A DNA stretch of 64,000 bases from Psammoneis japonica (GCA_008632985.1 QPGO01000152.1:1-64000), one strand, 5' to 3'; shown: positions 1 to 23,456, counted from the stretch's first letter. Notes: generated by a model not told the origin, from the letters alone. Numbers and translations are program-made.

Positions 1-1097
1 GCTCTTGAAAAGAGTCAGTCACCAACAACGGCAACAATGACATCCCTGCCTTGCAGGGAAAGTGTCTTGACAAAGACTCAGATGATGAAGATGACAAAAG
101 GAAGAAAACAATCAGCACACGCAAGGCTTCATTCGGTCGCTCCGACATGACACAGCGGGCCAGTCCGTCGAATCCAAGGTGGCTCATGTTGGTCCCACCA
201 GCCTGATGTGATCAAGCACAGCATTGCACACCAAGCCACTTCACAAGTCCAGCCCAACCAGCAACTGCTCCTTGCCACCGCTTGGTGTTTTGACCATGGA
301 CAATGTGAATTTCTCCACAATCCAGAGATCAAATGTGGAGACATTGTTGACACTGTCAATGTTCGTTGCATGATTCTGTTTAAAGAATGACTCCAATGTG
401 CAATTGGGGAGGCAAGTGCAGTGTGCATTTTCACATGCACATTCACAATTGTGAGTCATGAGTGTTGTGCACGTCATTTGCACCACAGTCGTGGGTGGAC
501 ACAAAGGACAGATCGATCACACACACAGAGTTGACAGGATGTCAAGAGTTGCAAATGCAGTTGATCAATGACACTGACAGACAGATGTCAATGCAAATCA
601 AGTGTGGGACAATCTGTTGTCATGATCAGATTCTCCAAGAGGCCTTCAGTTTGCAGAAGCAGTGCCAAGGCTTCAGGCCATTGAGGACCCCTTCAGAGAA
701 TCCCAAAACAGCAGAGTGAAATCTAATCTCATGATTTCTGCTTTTTGTGATTTGTTTCCACTTTCATGCACACTTGTTCTTTGAGCACAGCGCGTGCTGG
801 CATTTGAAGCATCAAGTCATTTGGGTGGCTCTGGCACTTGTGGTGGTTGGAGCCTTTGCACTGCCACAGGCGGTGATGGCTGGAGTCTTGCACCAAACAA
901 CAGCCAAAGCAGCCAGCATCAAGTTGAGGGCAACACTTGCACTTCAAAGCACTTGAAACTTTGAGCTCAGAGGCTGTTTTGTTCAGGGTCATCCAAAGTG
1001 CCATCAGCCTGCAGCACATTGTCAACCCTGTTGAAAGAGTTGTCCGGCTTGCAAAGCTTGATCACAATGTGAGATTTTTCCTTTCACTCATTGGCAC

Positions 1098-1371
1098 TGA
1101 CAGGATTTGAACAGGATTTGGTGCGCGCGAAGCATCGCGCGCTGTTTAGTTTACCGTGCACAGTTTTGTGTGCTTTAGTTCCGCGCGTTCACGCGCGATG
1201 TAGTTTGCTTTCGAGCCACAAGGCTCACAAGAACAACAACAGTAGCCCGATTGTGCCGACTTACACGTCTTCGGCTCCTGCAACGGTCTCTGAGCGGAGA
1301 CTCATCTGCCATTTAGACAGCAGTAAGGAGTCATTGTTTGAATTCTTGCCATTTGCCTTCATTTTCTGTCA
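1098..1371 (+). repeat. 5' LTR of element 1 (274 bp)
   Basis: TGACAGGATTTG...TTCTGTCA, nearly identical to 7922-8197. Confidence 0.93.
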
Positions 1372-1382
1372 GATTAACAGTC
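1372..1382 (+). promoter_or_regulatory. Putative primer-binding site complementary to a tRNA-Asn(GUU) anticodon arm (half-tRNA priming)
   Basis: GATTAACAGTC directly follows the LTR. Its reverse complement GACTGTTAATC matches tRNA-Asn positions ~30-40 as I recall them. Confidence 0.55.
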
Positions 1383-2308
1383 TTGCTCATTGTCAACCCA
1401 TTGAGCAACCGCCATCGTCGTCGTTGATTTACCAACGACGCTATTTCAATTCTACGTGGACCTCCGTGTGTGTTCTACATACATCGGCAAGTCTACGCGC
1501 ATNNNNNNNNNNNNNNNNNNNNNNNNNNNNNNNNNNNNNNNNNNNNNNNNNNNNNNNNNNNNNNNNNNNNNNNNNNNNNNNNNNNNNNNNNNNNNNNNNN
1601 NNNNNNNNNNNNNNNNNNNNNNNNNNNNNNNNNNNNNNNNNNNNNNNNNNNNNNNNNNNNNNNNNNNNNNNNNNNNNNNNNNNNNNNNNNNNNNNNNNNN
1701 NNNNNNNNNNNNNNNNNNNNNNNNNNNNNNNNNNNNNNNNNNNNNNNNNNNNNNNNNNNNNNNNNNNNNNNNNNNNNNNNNNNNNNNNNNNNNNNNNNNN
1801 NNNNNNNNNNNNNNNNNNNNNNNNNNNNNNNNNNNNNNNNNNNNNNNNNNNNNNNNNNNNNNNNNNNNNNNNNNNNNNNNNNNNNNNNNNNNNNNNNNNN
1901 NNNNNNNNNNNNNNNNNNNNNNNNNNNNNNNNNNNNNNNNNNNNNNNNNNNNNNNNNNNNNNNNNNNNNNNNNNNNNNNNNNNNNNNNNNNNNNNNNNNN
2001 NNNNNNNNNNNNNNNNNNNNNNNNNNNNNNNNNNNNNNNNNNNNNNNNNNNNNNNNNNNNNNNNNNNNNNNNNNNNNNNNNNNNNNNNNNNNNNNNNNNN
2101 NNNNNNNNNNNNNNNNNNNNTGCGGACCGGACAGGAAGTTTAGCACTTGACAACGAACGGGATGACAAACCCTGGCGACTTCTGATCTTAAGATAGTTCA
2201 AGATTTCAAGTCAAGTCCATTTCAAGTCAAGTCTGTTCTCACCCAAGTTTCGAGTCTGCCTTCGCTTCCCAACCAGAATTGATTGTCCTGACACCACTTT
2301 TGTCTGCC

Positions 2309-5300
2309 ATGGTTCTCACTCGTCAGCAACAAACCGATGGTTTCGAGCACGTGGTTGGAACCGTGCTTGCCCAAGGTGCTGGGAGTCCTCTTCGTTTGGC
2401 TTTGGCCCAAGACGGCACGGACTCGCATCAGGAACTGTTCACGTTCATGCCGTCCCAAATCGACTCGCTTGAGTGCGACAACGGCGCCAATGCAATCCCT
2501 TTGCCCCGTGGTCATAAGAACACCGTTAGCAGCACTGGTCAGTCTGTGCATTGTCAAAGCACACAAAGGTCTTGACGTTGCCAACGACTCCTCTTTGTTC
2601 ACGCATGACGAGTTCCTTGCCCACCGCCTCAGCCCCGACTGCATGTCTTCTGTGTCCATCGGCAGCTCACCCCTTGCACCTCCACATGTCACCAACCCGA
2701 CCAAGGCACGCGACCCGGTGCGGGACTTCAAGCGAGGCATCAAGCGTGATCCCACCGCTTTTACGGCTCTCAAATCCGACAAGCAGTGGCACACTTGGCA
2801 CACCTCACTTGTGGCACAAGCCCGTGCCCAAGACGTCGAGTGCATCTAGACTCGTCGTACAAACCGACCAGCCCCGAAGACAAACTGCTCTTTGCTGAAC
2901 AGCAAAAGTGCATGTTCGCCGTCTTCGAACGCATCCTTCTCACCGACAAGGGCAAGGCTCTCATTCGCGAAAATGTGGGGTCTTCTGACGCACAGACCGT
3001 CTGCCGCTCCTTGTCTGAGTGCGCGCTTGCCTCCACCCGCGCATCTGTCGAGTCCTCCACCCTGCTCACATGCCTCACCACCGCGCGTCTTGGTGATGGC
3101 ACTTGGAAAGGTCCGACCCACGGGTTCATCCTTCATTGGCAAGATCAGTTGCGCAAGTGCGAGGCACTCATCCCGGCCAGTGACCACTTCTCTGAAGGAC
3201 AGAAGCGCGTCATGCTCGAGAATGCCGTGCACCCTGTCGAGGAACTCCGTGCTGTCAAGAACCAAGCTGATCAGCATCTACGCAGAGCGGCAAGAGCCTC
3301 ACATGCGATCAATGCTGTGGCTTGCTCCTCTCCGCGCAGCTCAGCGCGACAGCACGTTTCAACCCAAGACGACACCTCGAGCTCCCCAACGTGCCACATG
3401 CACACACGACGTCTGCTCCGAGGAACCGTCCGACGATGTGTTCTACGACATTGACAGTGACGTTGATGTCCTTCAAGCCAATGCTGCCTGCACCGCGGTC
3501 CCAGCCTCACCGGTGTCCAATGGAGACGTCTCCCTCCCGACCACCAACGGCTTTGGGATTCGTTGCCCGATTCCTCCAGGGCGATCATCCTTGAGCATTC
3601 TCGTCCACCTCCCCGCAACCCGCGAGCCAGCAACTGCCATGAGTCTGTTACGGCCAACCTTCACGACCAACGCCTTGGGAGTGACGGTGATGTCAACTTG
3701 TCCAACACGACTCCCGCTGACTCTGGTGACTCCGCTCCACATGTGGACGCCACTTCGGATAATCCCATCCTGGCGCACCTCACCAAGCGCAAGCCACTGC
3801 CACCCGGTGATCTGCAACGTCTGTTGTCTCCCAACCAAGCTCCCAATGCCAGTCGACCGGGGCCATCCGCCGCTTCCTCTACCCCGCCAGCTTCTGCAGA
3901 TGACACAGAACTTAACGGCCGCACTTGCCACCGCGCCAACAACCACAATGTCATTTACTCTGCCTCTGCTCATCGCTCCACACGCACTGGCGCTCTAGTC
4001 GATCGTGGGGCCAACGGCGGCATTGCTGGCGACGACGTTCGCGTCATTGCACGCACCTCTCGCCAAGTCGACGTTCAGGGCATTGACGATCATCAATTGG
4101 TGGACATCCCCATTGTCACCGCTGGTGCCGTCATTGAGACCCAGCGTGGTCCCGTCATCGCCATCCTCCATCAGTGCGCATGCACGGGAAAGGGCAAGAC
4201 CATCCATTCCTGCGGCCAGCTCGAATGGTACAAACAGGATGTCAACGATCGCTCTGTCAAGGTGCCCAACGGCTTGCAACGCATTGCCACTCCTGATGGC
4301 TATGTCATCCCCATTGACATCAAGGCTGGCCTGCCTTGTGTTGCCATGCGACCTTACACTGACGCCGAATGGGACACCCTGCCCCATGTCATCCTCACCG
4401 GTGATGACACATGGGACCCTTCCGTCCTCGATCACTCTGTCACTGACGACGACCAGTGGTGCGACGCGATCTCTGACCTGCAGGACGATCCCACTGCCAA
4501 CCTGTTTGACGAATGCGGCAACTGCCGTCATCGTGTCGTTGTCAACGAGACCATCATGTCCGCTTCCTTGTCTGCCGATCACGCGTCCGCCCTCGATGAT
4601 CACCTCATTCCGAACGACGACGTGTTCTACGAGTGTCATCTGCATGCGATTGACCCCAAGGGCGATGACGTTCCACCTCCGGAGCGCACTGTACAGCCCA
4701 AGGACCCCCCCTTCGAGTCTCTTCGGCCTTGCTTTGGCTTCCTACCTGCCGATGCGGTCCGTCGTACTTTTGACTGCACCACGCAGTGCGCCCGCATGCC
4801 CGCCGGCACACACCTTCGCAAGGCCTGCAAATCACCCAACCCCGCCCTTAATGTGCACCGCCGCAACGAGCCTGTCGCCACTGACACCGTTTGTGCCGAC
4901 ACCCCGGCCGTCGACTCTGGTTGCACCAGCGCCCAACTGTTTGTTGGCACCGAGTCTGCCGTCACTGACGTCTGCGGCACTGAGACGGACAAAGAGTTTG
5001 TCAACACACTCGAGGATCAGATCCGTGAACGTGGTGCCCCATCCAAACTCATTGCGACCGTGCTCAAGTTGAGATCAGCAACAAAGTGCTCGGGATCCTG
5101 CGCGCCCTCTTCATCTCCAGCTGGCAAAGTGAGCCTCACCAGCAACACCAAAACTTTGCCGAGCATCGACACCAGACCGTGAAGCGCATGGCGAACACTG
5201 TCATGGACCGTTTTGGTTCGCCCGCCCACACATGGCTGCTGGCGCTCATGTGCGTGTGCTTCACACTCAACCATGCAGCGTCCCCACGTCTCCACTGGCG

Positions 5301-8109
5301 CACGCCCCTCGAGACTCTCACTGGATCCACCCCGGACATCAGCCCATTGCTTCGCTTTCACTGGTGGGAACCAGTGTGCTTCCACCTCGATGACTCCGAT
5401 TGGCCGTCCGAATCCCGTGAGTTGCGTGGACGCTTCGTTGGCATTGCTGAGCACGTCGGCCACCAGATGACCTTCAAGATTCTATCTGACGAGACTCAGA
5501 AGATCCTCTGCCGGTCCAACGTTCGCTCCGCTACCCCCGATCCTGCCGTTCGAAACCTGCGTCTTGATCCTCCTGATGGGGAGCCACCTGAACCCATCAT
5601 CAAATCTCGCCATGACGACAACCCCGTCGATTCTCCTGATGGGGAGATCAGGACACCCAAGATGCCAGTTTTCGATCCGCAAGACATCATTGGACGTACC
5701 TTCCTCATGCAGCCACAAGAGGACGGACAACGCCACAGAGCTCGCATCGTCAAGGCCGTCGAAGACCACGAATGGAAAGTGAACGGCAATCCCGAGCTCA
5801 CTAAGTTCGTCTGCTCTGTCAACAATGACGAATACGAGGAAGTCCTTGCCTGCAATGACATCATGAATCACATTGAGCAAGAAGACGAAGACACCACCAT
5901 TTGGAAATTTCGACGCATCGTGTCACACGAAGGACCTCTGAAGCCTCACGACCCAACCTGGAAAGGCTCAAGCTACAACATCATGCTTGAATGGGAAAGT
6001 GGGGAGATCACGTCCGAGCCTCTTGCCATCATCGCCAAGGACGACCCCGTCACCTGTGCCATCTATGCACGAGAGAACGGACTCCTCGACACGGATGGCT
6101 GGAAGCGGTTCCGCACCATCGCGAGGCGCCAAAAGAAGCTATTTCGCATGGCCAACCAAGCCAAGCTTCGCTCCTTCCGCACTGCACCTCGCCACAAGTG
6201 CGGATGCGAAGTTCCCCGGAACTACAAACACGCCATGTCACTGGACGAACGCAATGGCAACCGCAAGTGGGGAGACGCAACTAATCTCGAGATGGACCAA
6301 CTCGACGAATACGAAGTCTTCCATGACTGCGGGCCCTTCAAGTCTTCCACTCCTCCTGCGGGACACAAGAAGATCCGAGTGCACCTGGTGCACGACGTGA
6401 AACACGATGGTCACCACAAGGCAGGACTCGTAGCCGACGGGCACCTCACGGACGTGCCCATCGACAGTGTCTACTCCGGAGTAGTCTCCCTCCGTGGCCT
6501 TCGGCTGATGATTTTCCTGGCCAAACTCAACGAGCTGGAGACATGGGCCACCGACATTGGCAATGCCTGCCTTGAAGCCACCACCAAGGAGAAGCTTTAC
6601 ATTGTGGCTGGACCCGAATTTGGCAAACTCGAAGGACACATCCTTGTCATCCACAAGGCACTGTATGGACTCCACAGCTCCGGTCTCCGCTGGCACGAGC
6701 GCTTCGCCGACTGCCTGCGAGCTGAAGGCTTCTTCCCCTGCCACGCCGAACCCGATGTTTGGATGCGCAGGATCGGCGACCACTGTGAACACATTGCCGT
6801 TTATGTGGATGACCTCGCCATTGCCATGAAGGACCCTCAATCTTTCGTCGACACTCTCACGGAAAAGTGCAAGTTCAAGCTCAAGGGTGCGGGACCCATT
6901 GAGTTCCATCTGGGTTGCGACTTTTCCCGGGACCCCGACGGAACCTTGTGCCTGTCTCCGCGCAAGTGCATCAAGCGCATGGTCGACAGCTGCGCCCAAC
7001 TGTTTGGGGAGAAACCTGCCACCAACGCCCTGTCACCTCTAGAGAAGGGTGACCACCCCGAACTGGACACTTCCGAACTGCTGGGACCCGATGGCATTCA
7101 CAAGTTCCAGTCTCTTGTTGGTTCACTCCAATGGGCAGTGTCCCTTGGTCAAATTGACATTGCCACGGCCGTCATGTCACTCTCTAGCTTCCGAGCTACG
7201 CCCCGTCAAGGCCACTTGGATCGTGCCAAATGCGTCTGTGGGCACCTCTCCAAGATGCGACACGGTGCTCTCCGCGTTCGCACGGAAGAGCCCGACTGTT
7301 CGGATCTCCCTGCTCCGGCCTGTGAATGGATGCATTCCGTGTGTGGTGAAGCAGAAGAGATGATCCCGAAGGACGCTCCACCGCCCCTTGGCAAGTTCGT
7401 CACTGCCACCCACTGCGTCGATGCAAACTTGCACCATTGCATGCTCACCGGACGCTCTGTCATGGGAATGCTCCACTTCCTCAACAAATTCCCGGCTGAT
7501 TGGTTCTCCAAGAAACAAGCCACCGTGGAGACTGCAACCTGCGGATCTGAATTTGTTGCCGCAAGGAATTGTGTTGAGCAGATTGTCGACCTGCGCATCA
7601 CCCTGCGCTGCCTTGGCGTCCCGATCCGCAATGTCAGTTGCATGTTCGGTGACAACAAGTCGGTTGTAGACAGTGCCACCATCCCGCACTCCAAGCCACA
7701 CAAGCGACACACCGCACTGTCGTTCCACCGTGTGCGTGAGGCAATTGCCTCTGGTCACCTTGAGCTCCACTTCATCGAAGGCTCCCGCAACCCTGCTGAC
7801 ATTCTCAGCAAGCATTGGGGTTGCTCCCAAATCTGGGACCTTCTCCGCCCCCTCATGTTCTGGAACTTCATTCCATCCGAAGTCGAATCTGTTTCTGTGG
7901 CTCCTCAAGCAAACTGGGGAGTGACAGGATTTGAACAGGATTTGGATGCGCGCGAAGCATCGCGCGCTGTTTGGTTTGCCGCGCACAGTTTTGTGTGCTT
8001 TAGTTCCGCGCGTTCACGCGCGATGCAGTTTGCTTTCGAGCCACAAGGCTCACAAGAACAACAACAGTGGCCCGATTGTACCGACTTGCACGTCTTTCGG
8101 CTCCTGTGA
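2309..8109 (+). pseudogene. Frameshifted gag-pol polyprotein of element 1
   Basis: Fragments in ORFs 2279-2575, 2337-2849, 2786-3454, 3563-5182 and 5086-8109. Motifs include DRGANGG, TDIGNA(C)LEA, ALYGL, YVDD, (C)GSEF, DNKS, HRVRE and NPAD. Confidence 0.9.
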
Positions 8110-8197
8110 CGGTCTCTGAGCGGAGACTCATCTGCCATTTAGACAGCAGCAAGGAGTCATTGTTTGAATTCTTGCCATTTGCCTTCATTTTCTGACA
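7922..8197 (+). repeat. 3' LTR of element 1 (276 bp)
   Basis: Preceded by a purine tract; aligns to 1098-1371 with ~10 substituted sites and 2 single-base indels. Confidence 0.93.
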
Positions 8198-8202
8198 ATC
8201 TC

Positions 8203-8507
8203 AATCACTTTTCGGTTCAGAGACTGGCTCTGAACCTCTCACAACATCCAAAACACTCTTTTGTGCATGGCATGACCTTCTCTGCTGTGGTTTGCTCCAG
8301 CTGGCCTTGACGTTCGGCACAGGACTTGACCACCCTTCTTGTGCCAGGGTTTTCCAGATTTCAAATCACTCCTCGGTTCAGAGACTGGCTCTGAACCTCT
8401 CACAACATCTGAGACACTCTTTTGTGCATGGCACTGACCTTCTCCAGTTTGTTCTAGCTGGCCTTGACGTTCGGCACAGGACTTGATCGCCCTTCTTGTG
8501 CCAGGGT
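8203..8507. repeat. Tandem repeat, ~161-bp unit, ~1.9 copies, interrupted by element 2
   Basis: AATCAC..CGGTTCAGAGACTGGCTCTGAACCTCTCACAACATC...GTGCCAGGGT starts at 8203 and again at 8364. The unit end resumes (AGGGTTTCCCAG) at 15435. Confidence 0.85.
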
Positions 8508-8676
8508 TTATGGACCAGCGGCATCGGGACAATCTAACGGATGTCTAGGACAGATGACAATCGTGTGCTAGATGAGAAAGAAAGTGAGCAAAGGAGAGAT
8601 CATCGGATCTCTCCATGCTGTCTGTGCTAGTCTGTCCGACACAAGGGAGTGTGATCCCCATCTCGGATGTCTGTCA
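8508..8676 (-). repeat. 3' LTR of element 2
   Basis: Ungapped match to 15266-15434. Confidence 0.92.
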
Positions 8677-11600
8677 CCCTCCCCTGATGAGCAATGCAAT
8701 GCTCAACAAGAAAGAAAGAGACGATCCGAATAAAAAGAGAGGACCAGAGTGGCAAAGAACAAAACAACCCACGGCCTTGGTCAGTGCATCAGCAGGGTTA
8801 ATGACACCCGGGATGTGTCGAGTGACAATCTTGCCCGCGTCACGCCAGCCTTGGACAGCAAAATGTTGAACATCAACATGACGAGATCGCTCCGCAGGCA
8901 CCTTGTTGTTGATCATCTGGGTGGCAGAGGAGTTGTCAATGTGCAAGGGAGTGGGATCACATTGGGGAAAACCCAATTCTTCCAGAACCATGCGGAGGTG
9001 CAGGGTCTGTTTTGCAGCAGTCACAGCCGCGAGGAACTCAGCTTCCGTGGAACTGGCAGCGGCAATCGTTTGCGTGCGGCATCGACAGTCAATCGCAGCA
9101 CCAGCAAGGACATGCGCACAGCCAGCAGCAGAACGGCGACGCCACAGTTCATTGCCATGTGCCGCATCAATGAATCCAAGAAGTTGGAAAAGGTCAACAG
9201 CACGAGGAAAATCCGGGAGAGATGGGTCATCCTCAAGCCATTCAAAATCGCAAGGAGGTGGGCCGGGATCGCGTTTAGACTTCTCACGGGTCAGTCCCCA
9301 ATGTTTGGTGTGCCGCAAATGCTTGGCCATGCGCTTGAGTGAATCACAATGGAGCTCAGCCGGTGCCTTGGAAAACTTGGACAAGGTGACAACAGGACAC
9401 CCAATGTCCAAACGACAACAGGAGCAGGCAAAGACCAATTCACCCAAGACAGAACAGTGCGAGAATCCTTGGGACTCAGCAAGAGTGTCATGCTCGGGTG
9501 CACCCTCTTCAGGACCTTCAGCAGTGTGCAGATCAGGAATGCAATCAACCGGAACAGGGGCGGCCTTGAAATCAGAATCAGACTCATGTGCATCGGGAGC
9601 ATCCCAACCATGGGTCTTGAAAACACGGTCAAGGCAGCTGGCAATGTTGACAGTGATTGAGTCGTCATTTTGAATGACATCAATGCCATTGAAAAAGCAA
9701 CCAAGCCCAAACACTTGAAGGGAGGAGTGTCCTCATTCTCGATCTGGAGAGCCCCACCAACATGGTCGCAGATCTCTTTCGCAATCTTTTCAGATGGACA
9801 AGCAAGAGCAAAATCATTGACCTGACAAAGGAGGAGGACCTTGACACCATCATGTTCACCGGAATGGATGCACTTGTCATGAGCAATGTTACGGAAAAGA
9901 AGTTTCTCACCCGTGAGAATCGAATTGACGTGCTTCTCCCAGAGGACACCAGCTTCAGGATGGCCTTGAAGAGCATGCTTGAGTGGGAGAACATGATGGC
10001 GGGGTGCTTTCTTGCCAAATCGCTTTTCATGCCAGGCAGCACATGCATCATCAACAGCAACAAAAACCGGTTGGGATGGGCCAGGAGAATGAGCGCAGGC
10101 ATCCCGTGCATCGCCGCCGAAGACACGATGCGACACAGCCGCACTGAGAGCGAAAAACATCTTTTCGACAGAACGTTCCACTCATGACGAATGGGTGGAA
10201 GTCAACTTGTGCAAGGCCGGCATTGCCAACTTGGAACCATCACCACATTGTTGGGAGCGACGTTGGCCATCCGGCTTTGCCATGCAATCCCAATGCGGAC
10301 GCATGACATTCGCGCCAGGGGACGTGGTTGCGGAGGACCACACATGCCCAGGGCACAAAATTGGTCCAGTTGATGCTGCTCGCCTTCTTCCCATTCAGGC
10401 CATGTGTCAAGTTTACGAAGCTTGGCACGGGTGAGACGGTCAAGAGCAGCTTCCTCCTGAGTGAGTGAGCGAGAGCCAATCGCATTGAGATGTGCATAAA
10501 ATGCATCCGCAGGAATGGCCTCATCCGAAAAATCATCATCGGGACAGAGAAGAGCCACAACAGATCGCACATCCTCCAAAGCAAGTTCAGGAACATGAGA
10601 GTCGTCCTCCACAGTGTCCGGCTCAAATGACTCCGCTTCCTCAAATGCCTTGTTAAGAGTGCGAGAATCCAATCGTCGTTCCGGCGCAAAAGCAATCTCG
10701 AAAGTTGGAATTTTGTCATGAAAGACCTGAGACAAGGCCTCTTCAGCATCGGAAGGAGTAAAGACTTCACGCTTGTTGACAGAGACAACATGTGCACCCA
10801 CAATCTTGTTGCAAGCAGCACGGAGGGAAGAAAACAATGAAGCCGCAGGACTGCACTGCTTGATTTCCGACACACAGACACGGTCCATTGGCGCACACTG
10901 AGAAAATCCAAAACCATGAGTGGGGTCCTTTGGAGGACGTTTCATGGTGCATGTGATGGTCGCAGCAAATGGATTCGACGAAGACGCAAACATGGGAATG
11001 GTGGTGTCCTGTGTTTCAGCTGGAAAAGGCTGACCATTTTCCACACGCTGTAAATGGACAGCATTGGGAGGGAGTTGATCCAAAAATGGGTCACCCACAC
11101 CTTCATCACAGCGCACATGCTTGGCCATCTTGACTTCATCAGTCTCAGGATCCCACCACATGACATTCTTGAGGGTGTTGGGAAGGCAACCAAGGAAGAC
11201 ACCCTTCTTGGAATTGGTCTGGAAGGCAGCAGAACGAGCAGTGGCGTTTGAACCATGCTTGACATCCGAAAGTCTTCAGAGCAGTAAAATCTTCGACCTT
11301 TCCGGCAGCAAGAGTGATGGGTGCCGCATCTTGATCTTTTGCAGGAGCGGCATTCTTGACACGGAGGTGGTGGTAAAATGCATGGGGCCAGAATCGGATC
11401 GGAAGGTTGGCACCAATTAAAATCGCACGAATCGCGTTCTCAACAGTTGGGTGTGAGCGTTCAACAGGCCCACATTGGTTGGATGCGCCAGCACCAGAAG
11501 GACAGATGTCATGCTGGAATTCTCGTTCAAAGAGGTCACGAACTTTGGGGTTTTTGCACAATTCCCCACCTTGGTCCACAAACACACATTTGTCACGACA

Positions 11601-14600
11601 ATTCCGTGAATGTCGATCCAAGAATCGGTGAAGCCACTTGAGAGGACTGGCCTTTGAAACCCTTGCTACGCCATGGAGCATCCGCGTGTGATGATCATAG
11701 ACAGCAATCCAACATGTTTCACCATTGTGTCCAAGACAATCAACCTTGCGGGCTTCATTCTTGGAAGTCTGGCCAGCAAAAGCAAAATCGACAGTGAGAC
11801 CTTGGTGTGGTTGGGTCGCCTTCCGAGTCGTGTTTGGTCCAGCAGGAGTCTTGACTTGCTTGGCTTGGACACACGCAGGGCATGTGTCAAGGACAGGATT
11901 AGCATGACAGAACTTGGGGACGCCCTTGACACACTTGTGAGCATTGTGCAAGCAGTGATCACTGGGGTGTCCAAGGCGTTGATGCCACAGAAGACGTTCA
12001 GTCTCAACCTTGAGAGAGCGGACAGGAGCAGGGGCAGACAACGGAGCTGAGTCACACTGCATCGAAAATGGCTCAGCATCCATCAGCAAGGGATCAGATG
12101 GACCTTGTTGGACGTTGACAAAAAAGACTGCACGTTGACATGCATCATCAACGTCATCAACCAAGGACAAGTCAGGGGTCGTCGATGTCGAGGGGACACC
12201 AGACGGAGACGGAGGAACCAGGGGTTGTGTGAATGCCTTGCCATGTCGAAGCACACCATGGACAACTGCCGCTTGTGCATCAGTGGAAGCAGTGCAAGTG
12301 CAAGTGCCATTGGCACATGTCTTCTCAAGGAGCTCGGAGCGAGTGGACTGAGATTTGAAACCAGAAGCCCACGCAAAATCACCTTCATCAATCAAAGTGG
12401 ATCGTAGACTGGGATGGTAAAAAGCACGTACGAGAAGAAAGCCTTCAGGGTTGTCTGCAGGCACCTGTGGGCATCCAAAGCCATGAGGAACCGCATCAGA
12501 GCCTTCAGCAGCCGGAAGCATCTTCAAAGGGCATGGGTCATCCGGTCCAAAAGGAGCACATGCGTGGAGGAGGTTCTTGTCCCCTGTGCAGGACACCCAA
12601 GCACCAGCATCAATCTGTGCACGATGTGTTGTTGAATCACGAAGCACATGATTGATGGGAACAACTGGGGCAGCAAAGGATGCAAAGGTCGCAGGTGACT
12701 CCGGGGGAGAAAAAATCGGGGAGATGCGTGCGGCACTGAGAGGCGACAAATGCTGGGTGTCAGTCACATCAAGATGCTCAAATGCTTGGTCTTGATCAGT
12801 GGACAATGGAGCATCAGCATCCAATGTAGGAGGATCGAATTCCCTCCCCTGATTGTGATTGCCAGGGTCATCATCAGGAATCGTCTTGGGATCAGGAGCA
12901 CCAGCCTTCATCGAGCTCGAAAGAAGGGTGGCAAATGAGACAGGTGAAAGAGGAGGATCAGCAGAAGGCAACGAGTCGTTTGGACCCTCTTTCACAGTCA
13001 CCCCGCTTGCAGGAGTTTTCGGATTGGAGGAGAATGGGCAGCATTGTTTGTCCGAACACAACAATGGCCCCAGGAAAAATCCTTCTTGGCCGTGCCAGAC
13101 TGAAGTGCATCACGAGCACGCTGGTCACGTTGAAGAAACTGGGAGAACCGAATGAGATGGGTGCGCAGGTGCTCAGCATTGTTCAACACAGGACACTCAT
13201 GGAACAAGTGGTTGTTGCCACAAACAACACATGGACGGTTCTGTGCAATGGCAGGCGAGGACTTGATCCCACAGATGCAGGCCTTGTAGACACCATGGAG
13301 GGCTTGTGCATCATCATCTGCAGGAACATCCACAGTGGCAAGTTCATTTACAAAATGTTCCACAGTTTCCGTGGGTTCTTCCACAGGAGGAGAGTCAGAT
13401 TCCTTGGGAGACTCTTCAATCGCTGGAGGCGGAGTAGAAACTTCATCCTGGGGAAGCAATTCAAGACCGCGGACAGGAGCTGCGAGAGGAGGAGGAGGCG
13501 AAGTGTGAAGACAATGTGGAGGACATTTGGGAGGGTCCTTGACACGTAGAGCTGGGCCATCCGGTTCCTTGAGAATCGCACCAACGGTTTCAACAATCTT
13601 CTTCTGGGTGAACTTGTGTTGTTTGGTCTTGTCTTCCCGGGCGTCCGCTGTTTTACGGTGAAGGTGCTCGCCATGGCGGGTGTTGCTGAGAAAAATGTCA
13701 AGCTCACCAGGGTCATCAAGAGATGCATCAACATTGGAGATGACAGCTCGCAGCTGAAGGCAGTCTCTGAACAGAGCATGACAGCAGGTGGCTCTCAATC
13801 AACTCATGCGGACGCTTCGTCCAAATTGGTGGGATGTCAAAGAGAATCATCTTGACAGCTGCGTGTCCATCACCACAACATTGGCGAACGATGTCAGGGC
13901 ACTTGGAGTCTGCCGGAAAAATTCCAACTTTCTGAATGTGCTGGAAGATGGTCAGTTTCATTCGGTCAAGTGCTGCCATCATCCGGAGAGGCAGATCATC
14001 GGTGGGATCATTGCCACAAGTGAAACCCCAATTTCCACCATCCTTGATGAAACACCACAGAGGATGCACACATGTGCCACAAGCCGAGGCTTGTTGGGTT
14101 GCAGCAATGCACCATGCACGGATTCCTTGAGGAGAGATGTCATCACAAGTGAGAGGATCACGAAGGAATGATTTTGTGTCCCAGTCAGTGTGATGAACAA
14201 AGAGTGAACCATCAGCAAGGATGAGACGCTCAGTGCCATCCTCGCAACAAAGGTTTCCAGACTTGCAGGGTGCCAGGGATTCGCCAAGTGCTGCTTTCCC
14301 AGCTTCCTTGCGCTGACAGCGGGCCAGTGCATCCTTTGGAAGTCCTTTCGGATTAAAGGTGTGTGTGGCACTGGCAGCAGTCGATGAAGAAGCCATGCCA
14401 GCAGCAGTCATGGCAGACGGTGCAGGAGACGACACCTTGGGAGTGGAGTTCTTCAGTGCGTTTGTCACAGCTTGCTCAAACTGTTTTGGACCAGGCAAGT
14501 GAGCAGCTGGGGCCTTGGCAAAGTCTTCAGGAGTGGGACCTGCAGTGGCAACTGGTGTAGATGCAGAACTCAAAGTGGTCGGTGGATCCGGGTGCGGATC

Positions 14601-14771
14601 ATCAGAGATGTCATCCCAGCAATCACAACATCGAAAACGAGGGCTGAAACAGAAACGTAGAGTCCCAACACACAGATGTGTGGCATCGTCGTTCTCTGAA
14701 ATCACCTTGATCACAGTCTTCTGAAGAGTGCTGAGGTTCAGACGAACCGGGGGGCCTTGAGGAGCAGCCAC
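8674..14771 (-). pseudogene. Frameshifted gag-pol of element 2
   Basis: Fragments in ORFs 13728-14771, 12998-13798, 11145-13064, 10202-11161, 9291-10181 and 8674-9714 carry copia motifs in the expected order. Confidence 0.9.
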
Positions 14772-15255
14772 AAAGAGAGGAGCCTTCTCAATGATCGGTC
14801 CAATTTGTGCAAGATCCTCAGTCTGGAGAGCTTCAGGGATGATGAGATTCTGAACGATCTCATGTCAGAGGATGGCAACAGCGTCGCTCTTGAGGCCTTG
14901 AGGGGCAAATCCATCCAAAAGATCTTCAGGAGCAGGGATCTCGTCCAAATGAAGAGCATTCAGGAAAATGTGAGCATCGGGTGTGCGATTGTGTGGGCTG
15001 AATTCAACCCGCATTGTCTTGATCTTGGTCAAATTGACGGCGTTTGGATTTTTTGTTCACCATGGTTGCGCGGGAAAAAAATTAAATTCCTGTGCAGAGC
15101 TCTGGTGTGTGTTCTACGGTGGTCGTTTGATCACAAATCGAGAGGTGAAAAAATGGCTGTGACAATGATGACGATTTCAACAAAGAAAAAGTCGCCAAAT
15201 CACACAACAGGCACTGCAATGGATGAGCACAGAGGAAGAGGAACAGTGCACTGCT

Positions 15256-15265
15256 GCTCACAACC
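15256..15265 (-). promoter_or_regulatory. Putative PBS for tRNA-Met half-molecule priming (GGTTATGAGC, mutated to GGTTGTGAGC)
   Basis: Abuts the 5' LTR. Plus-strand GCTCACAACC equals the Met anticodon loop GCTCATAACC with one TA->CA change. Confidence 0.65.
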
Positions 15266-15434
15266 TCACGGACTAGCGGCATCGGGACAATCTAATGGAT
15301 GTCTAGGACAGATGACAATCGTGCACTGGATGAGAAAGAAAGTGAGCAAAGGAGAGATCATCGGATCTCTCCATGCTGTCCATGATAGTCTGTCCGACAC
15401 AAGGGAGTGCACTCCCCATCTCGGATGTCTGTCA
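15266..15434 (-). repeat. 5' LTR of element 2
   Basis: Begins TGACAGACATCC on minus; matches 8508-8676. Confidence 0.92.
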
Positions 15435-16842
15435 AGGGTTTCCCAGCTGCGAAATTCTGCGCAAAACAAACAGTCTGCAAAACAAGGAAGAGTGAGCAAG
15501 CTGAGCTGGTGAACAGCTGTTTGCAATCATGGATTGATTGCCCACCTTTTGCAAATGTTTGCAAACTTCAGCGAGCATCGCCGGCCATGAGGCGAAATTT
15601 CAGAGAACGGCACGCTGGAAAACTGATTTTTGCACACAAAAACTGGCTTCCAACTTTTGCACACAACTCACTGCAACAGCATCTCTCTGCTCTTCACCAG
15701 CTGCTGCCAGCAGCAGCTGGCAGTGGCAGCCAGCCAGAGAGCAGTCTCCACTGCAGCAGAGCAAGTCACTGTCTTCCGGGTCCGGCTTGTCAAAAGGTGC
15801 GGCAAGCTCAGTGGCAGAGCTCAGCCAATCACAGGACGAGGTCGGGGGTTCGAGTTCCTCCCTTTTTCCGCACTCACGTGCTTAAAAACAAGGCTGAAGC
15901 AACGCGTCATCGCGTGCACGCGAGCTGTTTCTAACAGCCCACAGGAACAGCTCGTGTTTCGTGTTTGCAAACAGGTTTGCAGTCGAAGACAGTTGCCAAA
16001 CAAATCCTGGTTCTGACAAACGCTTGTTGCAAATCGCAAACAAGCAGTCTGGTGAACAGCTGTCTGCCAGTTTGTGAACTCCATTCGCGGTTAGAAAATG
16101 CTGCTTCTTGCCTTTCATGGAGACCCGCTTCAGTTTCTTCTTCTGTCAACGATGTCGTCTGGGCGGGTCACTTTTGAACAGAATCAAACAGCAAGTGTGC
16201 AGTCATTGGTTTTGTGCAGGAATCATGCAGAATGTGCAAGCAAAACGATCATTGTGACTTTTCTTCATGCAGAAGCCACGTGAAATCACAGTGCATTGTT
16301 TCACTGGTGCATGAACAATGACCAAAAAACCAGTCATGCGACACACTTGCCGCATCATGAGAGTCAGCAAGTGATTGACATGGCGACCGGAGCTGTGGCT
16401 GATTCCGGAATCAGAACACGGTGCAAGCCGTGGTGATTCCAGATGTCACCACGGTTGAAGTTTGCTGGCATAAAAAATGTGCAGGAACTGCATTGGGCAA
16501 CGGGATGTCACAACAGAAATGCCACCATTCCTGTGCATCTTTGTGGATGGATGCATGCACTGCATCAACCAGCTCCCCTTTTCTCCATTCACAGCAACAA
16601 CTGTTGTGACGCACCGACAGAACAACAACACAGCTCACTTTTTGGATCGAGGCGTTTTTTGCCATCTGGCGAGTTAAAATGCTGGCAACACTAAAATGCT
16701 GACAATGCCAACACACTGGCAACACTGTCATGTTGTCCTTCCCCATTTTGTCTAAAAGAACATTGTCCCACATCATTCCACAACCACTGCAGCTCCTCTT
16801 CTCATCCCCAAAGTCTTGAACTCACTCCCCCAAAAAATGAAC

Positions 16843-19262
16843 TCACCCCAAGAGTTGTGTTTCTTGGAGCTTAGATTGAGCAAGCTTGTCTTTGAGGGTT
16901 TGACGCTTCATGCCCGCTTGTGCCATGGTGTCCTTGAGATGGCAGATCTCTTGATCTTGGTTGCTGATGGTTTGCTCTTGGTTTTGAGTTGTTCCTTGCA
17001 CAGTCTCAAGCTTCAACTCCAAAGTTGCATGATTTGACCACAGCTGCACTGTCTCTTTCTGGGCATCACAACACTTCTGGCCCATTTTCTCAAGAGAGCT
17101 CTTCACTTTCTAAATGGAGTCATTGCAGTGATCAGTGCAATCCTCCAAAGAAATGATTGAATCTTTCGTGTGCATGCTGTTGACCCGTTCCTGGAGCTCA
17201 GCATTTTCCTTTTCCCCACCAAAGATGTTGATTCGGAAAGGTCATTGTTTTTCAACTTCAGCACAGCATTGGCAGATTCTGTGTCAGCAACTTGAGATTC
17301 CAGTGTCTGAACAGCAGACTCTGGCTCTGTTTTCTCTGTGTGCAAACTCGCCAATTCCAAGGACAGCACCAAATGACCCCTCAATGATGCAGCCTTGTTG
17401 GACTCTGTGAGGTTGCCACAGATGATGCTGGAACAGCAGCTCCATCTGCAAAGGTGGCTGCAGCTGACACACCCTGAACCAACACATTGTAGACCAATGC
17501 ATTCTGAGCCAACACACTCTGAACCACCGACGTGTTCTGAACCAATGCGTTCTGAACCAATGAGTCCCCAACCGATGCTTTCTGAACTGACACATTCTGA
17601 ACCGACGTGTTCTGAACTGACGCACCCTGAACCGACATGCCCTGATTCCCAGCCAGCATGTTCTGCACTTGATGGTCAAGCAAATTGCTTTGATGAACAC
17701 ATGGCAACTGGCTCTCTGACGAGTTGTGCCTCACATGAGTTTGCATCTCTTTCAGATGCAAGTCAGCAGATGCCAACAAAGTGATCATCAGTGCATGGTT
17801 GCTGTGGCTGGTGACTTGAACCCAGTTGTCGAAACTGCACAGCTGAGCAACGCACTTCATTTTGTCAGAAATGACATTGATGCCAGTGACACCCGCAGTC
17901 TTTCCAGGCCTTGCACGACAGGCTAGACCATCTAGTTTGCACTGTTGCTTTTGCTTGTCCATCGCCTCTCAGTGCAAAAATCTCTCTTGATCCAGAGGAC
18001 ACCAAGTCCGATGCGCAGCAATGAGCTTGAGCGGACACATGGGGTTCATGGGCATTTCACAAACATGCATTCTGTCAAGGAGCTGCTTTTGGAGCACGGG
18101 ACTCTTGATCCTTGGTTTGTTGACTTTGTCCTCATCAAGTTGCACCCTGACATGCAACTTCCCAATGTCCGGTCCAGATTCATGCTTGCCCATTGTCACA
18201 CTGTCCCATGTGAGACAGGCAATCTCCTTGTTGCCACGCAAACCAAAACAGCACCCTGGCACAAAAACCAATGCAGGTGTCATGTCTTCACAGTCTTCCA
18301 TGGGTCAAAACTTGCCTTGACAGATTTTTGCTGCTGTCTTCTGATCTGCCCTGATGTCGACGTGTGACTTGTTCTTGCCAATGCCAAATGGCCTGTCCTC
18401 CTGTTGCTGCTTCTTCCATTCATCTTCCAAAATGGAGCACCAGCCGCCTTTCTGTTTGAATTCCTTGTCTTCATGCTTGCACTGAATGCTGTGTCTTGCA
18501 AAGGTTTGAAAAAGTTGCTTCACGCACTGAGTGAACGTGGATGGCTCATGCATTTCACCAGTCTTTGTGCATTGCGCCAGCGATGGACAACAAGAACAAG
18601 ACAGAAATTCAAAATCTCATGATTGTGCTGCGTTTTCTCTCCCGCAAGTGTCTTGCAGAAAACCCGCACAGTCTCAATGGACTCTTCTGACTTGATTTCT
18701 TTAAGAAGATGCTGCAGCCTCTCACCGCCTGATTCTTCCATTGTCACAAAAAAGCGCACCTCCAACTTGTCTCTTGCATTTAAATGCCAAGCTGAAATGC
18801 CAGAAGCCTTCTTGGTGTTTTGCATTTCTTGCAAAGTGAGATCTGAGCTAGAACACATCCTGCAGTGAAGGCTTTTGGCCAGTTCTCTTGACACATTTGC
18901 TCGTCATTGCACTCCAAAGCAGGTGCAGCAGCAGGTGCTGCAGCTGTTGTTGGCGCCGCTGCATGTGCCACTCTGGTGCATTGGCGTTGGTGTTTGAAAA
19001 TGACCCGTCATTCCCATGATGTTCATCATGGCATCCACCAGCATTGTCATTGCAGCCAAAGCAGTCAGCTTGAGGTGGAGCAACAGCATTGGATGTTGAT
19101 GCATTGTGCAAGCCCACAAGAGATTTGACTGCCATTGCCGTGTTTTGCATCAGTGGCTGGCAGGGTGTCTTGTTTGTCTTCTTCTTCTTCTTCTTCTTCT
19201 TCAGACAAGCTGCTTGACAATTGATCAGGCAGATGAAAGCTGCTGTCTTCTTCAAAATTCAT
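16843..19262 (-). pseudogene. Heavily decayed coding remnant(s): coiled-coil, pentapeptide-repeat and acidic segments; identity unknown
   Basis: Protein-like fragments in successive minus frames (LELASLHTEKTE...LESQVADTES; VQNxS repeats; EEEEEEE) inside TpA-depleted DNA. Confidence 0.35.
17470..17640 (-). repeat. ~15-bp minisatellite (TCTGAACCRAYRYRY-like) encoding VQNxS pentapeptides on minus
   Basis: About 10 degenerate TGAAC-containing units; translation SVQGASVQNTSVQNVSVQKAS... Confidence 0.8.
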
Positions 19263-21136
19263 CTTTCACAAGCAGCACTGTCAAATCTGTTGTGGAGCAA
19301 AATCAAGAATCAAAACGCTCAGTGTGAGAGCAAGAAATGTGCGAAGAACCAATTTTTCAAAAATGAATGTCGGACCGTTGCGAGTGCCAGTCATTGGCGT
19401 GCAAAAAAAAAAGCCCACAGTCAACAATCAACAACAGCAACGACACTTGTGCTTGACAAATTCCCTCAACAAAAACCATTCCTGCACTGTTGCTGTTTGA
19501 CTCCTCATGCAATCTGTGCTCACCACCAAACAGAATCATCTCTCCCACACTCGCACACTCACCTCGGGTCGTTTGATTTCTCATCTTGTGTCAACTGCAT
19601 CTCCACTTGCCTTGAAATCGAACTCCCCTTGGTTCATGTTGGACTCGGTGCTTGTTCTGATTCCTCACGGAATCACATGAAATCACGCACTTGCGCTGGC
19701 ATGCTCGTGACATGATTTCCGTGTGACTCCGTTGATTTTGCCGCAGCTGTCATGTGATTGCTGCTCAACAAAAGTGCAGCAAAGTCGAGCAAGTCAAACT
19801 GCAATGGCAACCAATTTTGCCGTGCTTGACATGGTTCAGAAAGGTGTCGCTCACATCTGGCAGCATGACACTGGCTGCCACCTCAACGAAGGTGGAACTC
19901 TTTTTTGTCAAGCCGCCGATGGTTTCCAAGTTGTTGATGACTTCATTGGTCTCAACATCTGCAACTTTGCTGACAATGGTTTTCAGGTGGTTGCACAACC
20001 TTTTTGGACATGTGTCATTGTGTCCAAACCACCATCAACACAATTCCTGTGGGCAAAGTTGCTGATCCTGCAAATGGTGCTCTCAAGCTGCTGGCGCCAC
20101 TGCTTGAGCTCCAATCACTGTCCAAGCAAAGGCACCTAAATCCAAGAAGGAAAAGAACCTCAAGAAGAGGACCGCTGATGCACAAGCTTGTTTCTCATTG
20201 ATGTTCTGCCACAAGACAGTTGGATCTGATGATGCTGTCACCCTCAGCCAGCACAAGCAAGTCTTCATCAAGGCTTTTCAAGAGTCAAGCAATGCAGAAT
20301 GTGCTTGTTTCATCAACAAGATTGTTGCCATGAGCTGGTGCATTCTTGCGGCTTGCATTGCTCAGATGTTGTTTGTTTCATGGAGGTGGAAACACAAGAT
20401 TCAATGTGAAGGCTTGCTGAAGAGCAGAGTGCATGCCTTTTCTGTGATCTTCCAATCTTCCAGAACAAGAAGCTCCTTTGCTCTTGTTGACAATGGCTTT
20501 CAAACTGCAGAACCTCCTCCTTGTGCCCCAGCACCAACAGCATTCACAAGCACCACGCAGCTGCAACAGAGCCAATCCAAGCTGTGAGAGTCGCACAACA
20601 ACCAACCCAACGACCGAACGGGTGCAACAAGTGCAAAAAGGAAGACATTTGGCACAAACACAAGGCATGAGTTCCAGTCAATTTTGACTTAATGGTGGTG
20701 TGCAATGAACAATTGTGGCATCTGCCTTGCCTTGGTTGCCAACATGAGATGGACTCATTGCTCAACGATGATTGAGACTGCGTTGCAATTGAACTGTTGG
20801 TTGACGCGCTACTGGGGATCGTTCCATTCACCATTTTGTTTTGGTGGCATCCCATCCATTCGGCGGGGCTTTGTTCATGCTCTGCTGCTCAGGCGTCTAT
20901 GCCGAACGTTTCATCCTCACCCCACACGTCAGGCCGTAGGTAAGGTACGGCAGGTAGACTCCCTTGCAGGGTTCGTCGGTTCTGCTACAAAATTTTGAAG
21001 TCGCAAGTTAAACCGCCCATCTAGTCATTTTTAATTTTGCTTTCGCGATGATGTGGGCGGTCACCAGAATAATCGCTAATAATGTTGACATCAATCTCCC
21101 ACAGCCCCGACGGGGGATTTGGTTTCGGAAAGAAAT

Positions 21137-22084: not shown

Positions 22085-22807
22085 CGTCGCGCGACTTCTT
22101 GTTCTTTTCTCTTTGGCCTCGACACGTATAGTGGATAACCTTCTACAAGAACAATTTGGTGATCCTTCTCTGTAGTTGATATTCAATATAGGAGCACGAG
22201 TTCACTCTCTGGACCCCAGCGCTGTTAGAATGAAGAGAGAATAGTACGGTCGCTATCGCGTGCCCGATGCCCGAATGCGAAGGGTGATTTGTGATTTAGA
22301 TTTTAGATTGTTGCTTCGGGCCGAAATTCGAAATGCCGAGCTTCGTGCACGTACCGGTACGTAGAGACCGTACCGGCAGGGGAAATTTATCAGCATTCTA
22401 CGTACAGTGCTGTAGAATGTCCGATTTGTATGTGTAGATTACGTGGCACAGTGCCACAGAGGTCATTGACTCCAAGCATCTCGACATTGCTGTCCAGCAT
22501 GTCAACATCTTCAATCACAATGTCAAGGGTCTCAATGTGCATCTCCATGCCGTCAAGGACCACAATGCTCTTTTTGAACGTGTTGTGGCAGCCCCTGACC
22601 CCGACAACCCTCAAAGTGTTGACGAATTTTTCGACCCCAATCACAATGCCTGGGACCATGCGACCCGCAACATGATGACCGAAACAGTTGAAAATGTCAC
22701 TGCTTTGGAGAAGCACATCAATGCCATGGTCACTGGTTGCAAGAAACCTTCTGAAGGTTGCTGTTCTGTGCCAAGCAAACCCTCTGAGGGTCGAAGAAGC
22801 AACGGCT

Positions 22808-23052
22808 GGCCAGCCTGTTCCAGCTCCAGGTGATCCGCATGGGGCTCGATTCCCATCATTTGGCAATTTGTGCATTCAGCACATCAAACTTTTTCAAAAT
22901 CCATTTTTGCCAAATCGAAGGGCAAGTGCACACCTCACTCGATTTTCGAAATGACCAAAATTGAAGAAGTTCAATGCGCCAAACTGCGCAGAGAAAATCG
23001 GCCTCTCTTGCGTGATGAAAAGCGGATCACCTGGAGCTGGGACAGGCCAGCC
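22808..23052. mobile_element. MITE-like element with ~31-bp terminal inverted repeats
   Basis: GGCCAGCCTGTTCCAGCTCCAGGTGATCCGC (22808-22838) is inverse to GCGGATCACCTGGAGCTGGGACAGGCCAGCC (23022-23052); no clear TSD. Confidence 0.6.
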
Positions 23053-23456
23053 CAGTTCAAAGCATTTCAATTGAAAGCACATCAAGAAGCACTCACCCCA
23101 GTGCAAGATGTCCCCAAACAAGGAGAGCACTGCACTTCATTCCCGCTGTCACTCCAGTGGCATGTCCAGGACCGAGCCTTTCCCTCATCCACAGGTTGAC
23201 AGCTGTTTTCACAAGGAGCCCCGATTTTGTCATGCGAACAACTCCCGTGCTCGCAAACCATGCTGCAAGGAACACATGTGCGCTGCTGCGGAGCACGACG
23301 AGCATGCAGAGCATCCGGACACCCATAGAGTGCAATCCCCCGCACCGTAACACTGCACAACGTCCGGGTCTCTTTTGAATGCGGTAAAGTCACACGAGTG
23401 GGTCAATCACGCGCGAGATCGCAAAAACGCTCAAACATCAATCAGAACCCTCCACG

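Follow-up and report, generated by a model that had tools for sequence, protein, structure and literature searches.

The known forms of mutational genome defence work by cytosine deamination, namely repeat-induced point mutation (RIP) in fungi and APOBEC activity in vertebrates. RIP of filamentous fungi, which requires a methyltransferase of the RID/DIM-2 type and a premeiotic stage, introduces point mutations into chromosomal repeats after their insertion, as dinucleotide-specific transitions that end at sharp edges and kill transposon reading frames. All of these features recur in the stretch of DNA from the diatom Psammoneis japonica studied here (GCA_008632985.1, QPGO01000152.1:1-64000; 64,000 nucleotides, hereafter the window), the first 20.8 kb of which are a block of dead transposons composed of two Copia long terminal repeat (LTR) elements, A and B, and a Crypton-like DNA transposon. 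The chemistry differs: RIP makes TpA from CpA and enriches TpA, whereas here TpA has become CpA or TpG and is erased, and the host is a diatom. Because the direction is opposite to that of RIP, cytosine-methyltransferase-type chemistry cannot explain the loss of TpA.

Taken as one statement, it is very likely that in this diatom DNA a TpA-specific A:T-to-G:C process (TpA to TpG or CpA) acted on the 20.8-kb block of dead transposons after their insertion, stopped at the repeat edge, ran some 50 to 100 times faster at TA, and was accompanied by ordinary CpG decay, and that the TpA surviving in positions 15440-20800 belong to the slowest class, which presents neither TAY nor RTA on either strand (Y, pyrimidine; R, purine). 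As TpA erasure runs beside CpG decay, both dinucleotides drain into TG and CA.

Loss of TpA from a block of dead transposons

The Crypton-like element at 15440-20800 is the most thoroughly erased part of the block. Its 5,361 bp contain 17 TpA, compared to about 213 expected from the density of positions 24000-56000; the observed-to-expected ratio (O/E) is 0.00-0.15 for TA, 1.5-2.0 for TG/CA, and 0.14-0.65 for CpG. Across positions 1-20000, TA O/E is 0.02-0.2 per 2-kb bin, and 400-bp bins fall to 0.00 as far as position 20800. TG and CA reach O/E values of 1.3-2.5 in the transposon block, and CpG is at 0.4-0.7 from 8 kb onward. The body of element A has TA O/E of 0.00-0.38 with CpG near 1, and the internal 400-bp bins of element B have TA O/E of 0.00-0.18. 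Beyond the block, TA O/E is near 0.6, and 400-bp bins between long open reading frames (ORFs) reach 0.8-1.16. Unique intergenic DNA thus retains TA, and the genes adjoining the dead transposons are unaffected.

The limits of the erased DNA are abrupt. At position 20800, TA O/E rises from 0.04 to 0.52 between adjoining 400-bp bins. A TpA-free island farther right, lying between genes, has razor-sharp edges, with 17 TpA in the 215 bp that precede it; it has no match elsewhere within positions 1-24000 and is a candidate solo LTR or transposon fragment. Across the window, erasure of TA is restricted to repeats with sharp limits, as is demanded of RIP.

The direction of change can be read from conserved proteins. 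We aligned the pol frame of element A to relatives with 54-65% identity and counted as conserved Tyr columns those with at least 80% Tyr. Five of the 22 such columns are kept, and the others now encode Cys (12, as TGY), His (3, as CAY), or Phe (2); Tyr to Cys is the commonest of the 54 differences at conserved columns of the element. Since conserved Tyr codons (TAY) now read TGY or CAY, these sites started out as TA and have turned into TG or CA. The change also depends on the preceding base. At second codon positions, A became G after T in 12/22 cases in element A and 4/8 in the Crypton ORF, compared to 0/37 and 1/14 after A, 0/33 and 0/9 after C, and 2/60 and 0/8 after G. Pooled, these counts give 16/30 after T versus 3/161 after any other base (p = 1e-12). 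In element A, A-to-G changes at the first position of Ile and Thr codons likewise come after T, in 4/4 cases.

This specificity bears on error-prone synthesis by a Pol-eta-like polymerase, which would turn WA into WG (W, A or T) while patching methylated repeats again and again. Such repair would be frequent where 5-methylcytosine deaminates, and A to G at TA belongs to the WA hotspot of somatic hypermutation. A WA signature, however, should be seen equally after A, where Asn to Ser and Lys to Arg together amount to the 0/37 and 1/14 given above, against 12/22 and 4/8 for Tyr to Cys. An equal A-to-G excess at ApA or other WA sites, which the first-pass annotation of this DNA had named as the outcome contrary to its own proposal, is therefore absent, and we regard the polymerase explanation as very improbable.

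Assignment of 15440-20800 to a Crypton-like DNA transposon comes from its recombinase remnant, P0241. An exhaustive search of a 1.8-billion-protein library returned 137 relatives at E<=1e-3; DUF3504, which we take to be a mark of Crypton-derived recombinase domains, was found in three of the nine relatives scanned (E<=0.01), two of them above the Pfam curated score cut-off. Pfam searches of the ORFs of 15440-20800 themselves (4 ORFs, then 8) gave no significant family, the set of 8 yielding only chance-level matches with E of 0.046-0.13; the assignment is made because the relatives of P0241 carry the recombinase positions and, in some cases, DUF3504. In the alignment with these relatives, R127, K164, H271, and R296 of the recombinase signature are kept. 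The second catalytic Arg has changed to His (R274), and the catalytic Tyr, present in 27/29 relatives, has changed to Cys (Y306, TGT). P0241 has one Tyr in 412 residues, compared to 3.6% Tyr in its relatives, and none of its eight majority-Tyr columns, the catalytic one included, is kept (4 Cys, 3 His, 1 Met). With two in-frame TGA and both the catalytic Arg and the catalytic Tyr replaced, this copy is dead.

The two LTRs of a retrotransposon are identical at insertion, and differences between them have arisen since. In element A, 8/10 recognizable TA sites differ between the LTRs, compared to 2/254 other positions (p = 4e-12); seven of the eight are TA versus TG or CA, and one is TG versus CA. 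In element B, the values are 5/8 TA sites and 4/151 other positions (p = 8e-6), with three TG-versus-CA double differences. As nearly all differences within the pairs lie at TA sites, the change must have taken place on chromosomal DNA following insertion. A TG-versus-CA difference implies two independent hits on one ancestral TA, and further doubles distinguish the Crypton-like copy from paralogous contigs at no fewer than five sites, at least 16680/1, 16731/2, 16734/5, 18745/6, and 19517/8. Compared to the window, contigs of a public sequencing run show transitions at 1568 places and transversions at 347. Gene conversion between differently mutated copies could in principle also yield LTR differences, which counts against this reading of the timing.

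The seven TA-versus-TG/CA sites of element A are unevenly divided, TA being kept six times in the 5' LTR and once in the 3' LTR. One bin of the same element, 1201-1600, has a TA O/E of 0.58. Together, these two observations indicate that mutation density is uneven within a single element.

The same comparisons largely refute the idea that A-to-I editing of transposon transcripts by an ADAR- or ADAT-type enzyme was fixed by reverse transcription, so that insertions arrived already mutated. LTR retrotransposons account for two of the three elements, and the neighbor rule would suit such enzymes, as ADAR prefers a 5' U (it also favors a 3' G). TadA-type enzymes likewise prefer a 5' U (PMC12296453). 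However, erasure is most complete in a DNA transposon, which has no RNA stage, and this together with the LTR divergence argues against editing of RNA or cDNA prior to integration. Also contrary to RNA editing, LTR pairs that began identical differ almost only at TA, TG-versus-CA doubles included; both TG and CA products occur within a single copy; of all contexts, that with a 3' G is used least here; and sharp-edged noncoding islands are erased too. We therefore consider this explanation very unlikely.

An independent case and the bases around TpA

A second occurrence of the pattern was found in metagenome contigs, which we scanned with a closer, 8-sequence Crypton alignment, as a 30-sequence alignment had no conserved stretch. 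The scan gave 16 Crypton-related loci, and no DNA similarity was detected between the window and any of these. Two of the loci, L005 and L006, have TA O/E of 0.02, CpG O/E of 0.40-0.45, and TG/CA O/E of 1.67-1.68. Normal TA resumes at a sharp edge near base 3100 of L005, and the flank carries a Na/H exchanger gene whose best named matches are from diatoms. Two intact copies, L009 and L010, are 99.1% identical to one another and 83-84% identical to L005, with TA O/E of 0.44-0.48. With L009/L010 taken as the ancestor, the rates of A to G per strand-site in this family are 83/196 for TA, 14/378 for AA (again at odds with a WA signature), 31/343 for CA, and 9/301 for GA; TA thus stands against 54/1022 for the other contexts pooled (p = 6e-38). 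L005 and L006, which are 98.3% identical, have TG versus CA at one ancestral TTAG, so the process continued past their split.

Further observations concern this group of sequences. Among the public relatives of the Crypton recombinase, P0259, P0293, and P0324 lack Tyr and have abundant Cys and His; together with P0291, these predicted proteins have 0-0.6% Tyr and 3.4-6.7% Cys and are translations of hypermutated Crypton copies. Such Tyr-free entries may be frequent in metagenome protein sets. Stretches beside the Crypton copies of three other loci have TA O/E of 0.00-0.38 (L002, ~8250-9961; L004, ~2750-4750; L008, ~4750-5750), indicating that other repeats of that metagenome organism are also affected.

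It could be argued that no hypermutation took place, selection against TA/UA having kept the repeats poor in TA from the start, or that modified DNA led to an assembly or base-calling artefact. The intact metagenomic copies are indeed already TA-low relative to their flanks (O/E 0.32-0.48), and active lineages may have adapted. However, conserved and catalytic residues have been destroyed, and LTR pairs have diverged in place. The exact-match contigs of the public run, among those listed, have 0-7 differences from the window (the assembly may derive from that run), and the pattern recurs in metagenome contigs that were assembled separately. This explanation appears extremely improbable.

The TpA that remain in 15440-20800 point to a role of the 3' base as well. 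The first-pass annotation had reported about 17 TpA, of which 15 are YTAR and two RTAR, with no plus-strand TAY, and our recount of exactly 17 agrees in context and position. The YTAR survivors are five TTAA, five CTAA, two TTAG, and three CTAG (e.g., at 15883, 16092, 16692, 17924, 18849, and 20690), and the two others are ATAA at 16471 and GTAG at 17490. It had also described both survivors of the erased repeat at 1-1097 as YTAR, and these are indeed TTAA at 381 and CTAA at 724. YTAR is the rarest TpA class in the gene-rich DNA of 24000-56000 (239/1273, 18.8%), so that 15/17 has a p of 1.2e-9 against this background and of 7e-8 against a flat 25% null.

The products agree with the survivors in this segment. 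For this comparison, contexts were strand-symmetrized and the gene-rich part of the window served as a proxy for the ancestral repeat. Relative to this background, YTGY is at 1.99x, RTGY at 1.69x, YTGR at 1.40x, and RTGR at 1.19x in 15440-20800, and YTGY exceeds RTGR by 397 to 227 (p = 3e-10). The gains per kb, in the same order, are 18.4/10.1/7.5/3.4, close to the 14.6/8.7/7.2/4.5 to be expected if a strict TAY route were combined with unbiased CpG decay. A context-blind route would yield equal YTGY and RTGR, and the skew therefore fits a TAY route. Tyr codons preceded by Y have become Cys nine times and His once, and those preceded by R seven and five times, respectively, which is the predicted direction (p = 0.16).

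Several results weigh against a general preference for a 3' pyrimidine. YTAR is not in excess among the survivors of element A (9/42) or element B (7/29), neither value being significant, and the asymmetry between YTGY and RTGR products is absent from both. Gene-rich DNA is a rough stand-in for the ancestor of a repeat, and some route shares accordingly exceed 1. In the L005 family, the rates by 3' base are 0.50 for TAA, 0.48 for TAC, 0.48 for TAT, and 0.19 for TAG, so that only TAG is slow (8/42 versus 75/154, p = 7e-4) and TAA equals TAY; at class-1 sites of this family, the TAY and TAR routes stand at 23:16, which is not significant.

RTAY is nearly gone from element B (1/29, compared to 29.5% in the background). 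Among the routes compared across three window segments, TAC to TGC ranks first in two and is also much used in the remaining one (route share 0.73-1.37), whereas TAG to TGG is little used and ranks last in two (0.02-0.29); the use of TAA and TAT differs among the segments. The 10 TpA that survive in the L005 element are all TAR on the plus strand, and five of them are YTAR (p = 0.025 versus flanks).

A preference for T-A-Y with slower activity on TAR, as the first-pass annotation had proposed, is thus upheld in 15440-20800 by both survivors and products and does not extend to elements A and B; in the L005 family, its slower TAR holds for TAG and fails for TAA. We conclude that a 3' Y preference is partly supported: it fits 15440-20800, whereas outside that segment it is weak and the slow context is TAG. 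The L005 family reproduces the 5'-T rule strongly and the 3' rule only in that G is worst.

Two smaller observations belong here. At alignment column 516, L006 has acquired a new TpA by C to T (CCAG to CTAG), so some YTAR survivors may have been re-created and may persist since their context is slow. The class-1 survivors are RTAR both in the window, where the ORF is on the minus strand, and in L005, where it is on the plus strand, that is, in opposite sense to the gene; a strand bias relative to the ORF was considered on this basis and set aside, and we draw no meaning from it.

The transposon block and its surroundings

The features of the window are listed in Table 1.

Table 1. Features of the 64,000-nucleotide window and their coordinates
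Feature	Coordinates	Strand	Remarks
Further erased repeat, left end of window	1..1097		2 TpA, both YTAR
Copia-type LTR retrotransposon A	1093..8197	+	LTRs 1093-1371, 7917-8197; Pfam RVT_2
pol reading frame, element A	5029..8109	+	Aligned to 30 relatives
Copia-type LTR retrotransposon B	8510..15434	-	LTRs 8510-8676, 15268-15434; Pfam gag_pre-integrs, SH3_retrovirus
TpA-erased, CpG-poor multi-copy repeat, degraded Crypton-like DNA transposon	15440..20800		Starts directly past the LTR of element B
Crypton-type tyrosine recombinase remnant ORF (P0241)	17381..18616	-	Two internal TGA read through as X
Right border of erased block	20690..20810		Last survivor TTAA at 20690, next TpA at 20810, normal density onward
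TpA-free island	22441..23325		0 TpA in 885 bp, 35 expected, Poisson P = 5e-16; CpG O/E ~0.5
Short TpA-free stretch	56529..56853		325 bp, within a partly depleted island at ~56400-57200
PIGA ORF	40041-41474	-	Closest named relatives all diatoms, 57-63% identity; best unnamed match 69%

Relatives of element A reach element B at 26-32% identity and only at the RNase H end (6/6 queries). Element A contains an assembly gap of 618 N at 1503-2120. Between the two elements, at 8203-8509, a unit of ~160 bp occurs twice in tandem (8203-8272/8364-8433 and 8290-8352/8447-8509, 93-94% identical). Copy number was read from the summed depth of public-run contigs placed at 80% likeness (3637 contigs), with the depth of exact-match contigs, ~60-68, as baseline. 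The Crypton-like element has a summed depth of 150-480, or a few copies, and element B is high-copy, with ~1550-2600 and up to ~9400 over the LTR; at this likeness, every bin of 8700-20800 lies above single-copy depth. Two other public sequencing runs contributed four matching contigs in one case and none in the other.

With TAA and TAG erased, the transposon DNA within positions 1-24000 is crowded with long false ORFs. Forty stop-to-stop frames of at least 150 amino acids lie wholly or partly in 1-22000, many overlapping one another, across all six frames, and gene finders would over-call in this part of the window. The genes in 21-64 kb are long and intron-poor. One ORF (54236-56443, minus strand) joins CAP-Gly and inward-rectifier potassium channel domains (IRK, IRK_C) in a single frame, an uncommon pairing.

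Another ORF (47657-48343, minus strand) has an Endonuclease V domain (PF04493, E 1e-28). The Endonuclease V family recognizes deoxyinosine in DNA, and the ORF therefore bears on any model that invokes inosine, but it probably has a housekeeping role and its location is probably coincidental. No deaminase-fold domain was detected among 45 ORFs of the window scanned with Pfam.

Candidate mechanisms and known systems

The chemistry that we tentatively favor, with less than even confidence in the whole of it, is deamination of adenine to hypoxanthine in DNA. A putative enzyme would act on adenine in chromosomal DNA, would need a 5' T, would be tuned by the 3' base, with C the most and G the least favorable, and would be recruited to silenced or repeated DNA. 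Replication would then fix I:C as G:C, and either strand of the palindromic TpA could be hit, giving TG or CA. We favor this route because it is chemically the simplest from A to G and because the TadA family shows the same neighbor rule on RNA. According to PMC12296453, native TadA depends on UACG and the evolved TadA-8e retains a preference for UA, which bears out what the first-pass annotation had said of TadA. The TadA/ADAT fold that the annotation had thought possible is conjectural. The locus is like TadA/ADAT and the TadA-derived base editors described there in that A-to-I changes are read as G and a 5' U/T is required. A to G chiefly after T, which would be expected of such an enzyme, is what we find both in the window (16/30 versus 3/161) and in the L005 family (83/196 versus 54/1022). 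Two considerations tell against adenine as the target. A to G in TAY and T to C in RTA are one event seen on opposite strands, which sequence alone cannot separate, and we know of no natural eukaryotic deaminase of chromosomal adenine. The natural TadA/ADAT enzymes act on tRNA; their activity on DNA is a product of laboratory evolution only and needs single-stranded DNA.

The same palindrome gives room to a thymine route, in which thymine at R-T-A in silenced repeats is modified by a TET/JBP-type dioxygenase or otherwise, to 5-hydroxymethyluracil (hmU) or 5-formyluracil, and mispairs with G, so that T becomes C. This route predicts an identical pattern, and every sequence result fits it equally. 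5-Formyluracil can pair with G, and the hmU of dinoflagellates is located preferentially in TpA. Nothing in the sequence, however, prefers thymine modification over adenine deamination, and to our knowledge no such modification is known in diatoms. Excision of hmU should, moreover, give outcomes other than clean transitions, and transitions dominate here (1568 versus 347 transversion places). We consider a thymine route unlikely.

Biased mismatch correction seems to us equally improbable. According to this explanation, a T:G glycosylase or short-patch repair acting on methylated repeats resolves T:G at TpA to C:G, irrespective of which strand was newly made. The erased DNA is CpG-depleted as well and presumably methylated, and element A has lost TA while its CpG stays near 1, as over-active T:G-to-C:G repair predicts. 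Very-short-patch repair has been held responsible for the depletion of CTAG in E. coli; here, in contrast, CTAG and other YTAR are the survivors. Known T:G glycosylases favor a CpG context rather than TpA, and the rate of mismatch correction is capped by raw polymerase error, yet 8/10 TA sites diverged between the LTRs of element A, compared to 2/254 others. Aberrant repair by human TDG does yield a context-specific bias, although in another context, that of CpG islands (PMC4041421). Very-short-patch repair and aberrant TDG repair thus resemble the present case in converting T:A to C:G in a fixed short context, and differ from it in being genome-wide and slow, where the change here is repeat-restricted and near-complete and leaves CTAG standing.

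If adenine deamination of this kind is correct, it would be a natural enzyme with the activity that base editing had to evolve in the laboratory, and the first natural adenine editor of eukaryotic chromosomal DNA. It is possible, if doubtful, that diatoms have a genome defence that chemically mirrors fungal RIP, in which a predicted natural enzyme deaminates the adenine of 5'-T-A in repeats and so erases TpA, Tyr codons, and TAA/TAG stops. A process directed at TpA would be a second chemistry of mutational genome defence, in hosts that form an ecologically dominant algal group. It would account for the odd TG/CA-rich, Tyr-free ORFs of diatom assemblies and metagenomes, and it would bias both transposon dating and gene prediction in diatoms, as stops vanish and false long ORFs arise. 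With regard to how repeats might be targeted, the RID-related DNMT4 genes may offer a lead, though not one to the chemistry; in PMC9998398, such genes, their function not established, are given for 31/60 diatom species, and for diatoms alone among the MMETSP taxa surveyed. According to that paper, P. tricornutum has no DNMT4.

In the full-text literature, with subscription journals and supplements lying outside that scope, we found no published account of TpA-to-TpG/CpA mutation of repeats. A term search of PMC2806351, a paper on diatom Copia elements, gave no match for hypermutation, dinucleotides, or point mutation. Among systems that have been described, ADAR hyper-editing and APOBEC3 editing of cDNA resemble the locus in their clustered, neighbor-dependent transitions that inactivate transposons (PMC4866542). 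These differ in that they act before integration, on the RNA or cDNA of retroelements, whereas the changes here came after insertion and include a DNA transposon; APOBEC moreover turns C to T, unlike the A:T-to-G:C change seen here. The element at 15440-20800 is itself of a familiar kind, as its P0241 frame can be aligned with 137 relatives of the Crypton tyrosine-recombinase transposons that bear the signature positions, although this copy is dead. The nearest known system is fungal RIP, with which the process shares restriction to repeats, timing, specificity, and lethality, but not the defining chemistry.

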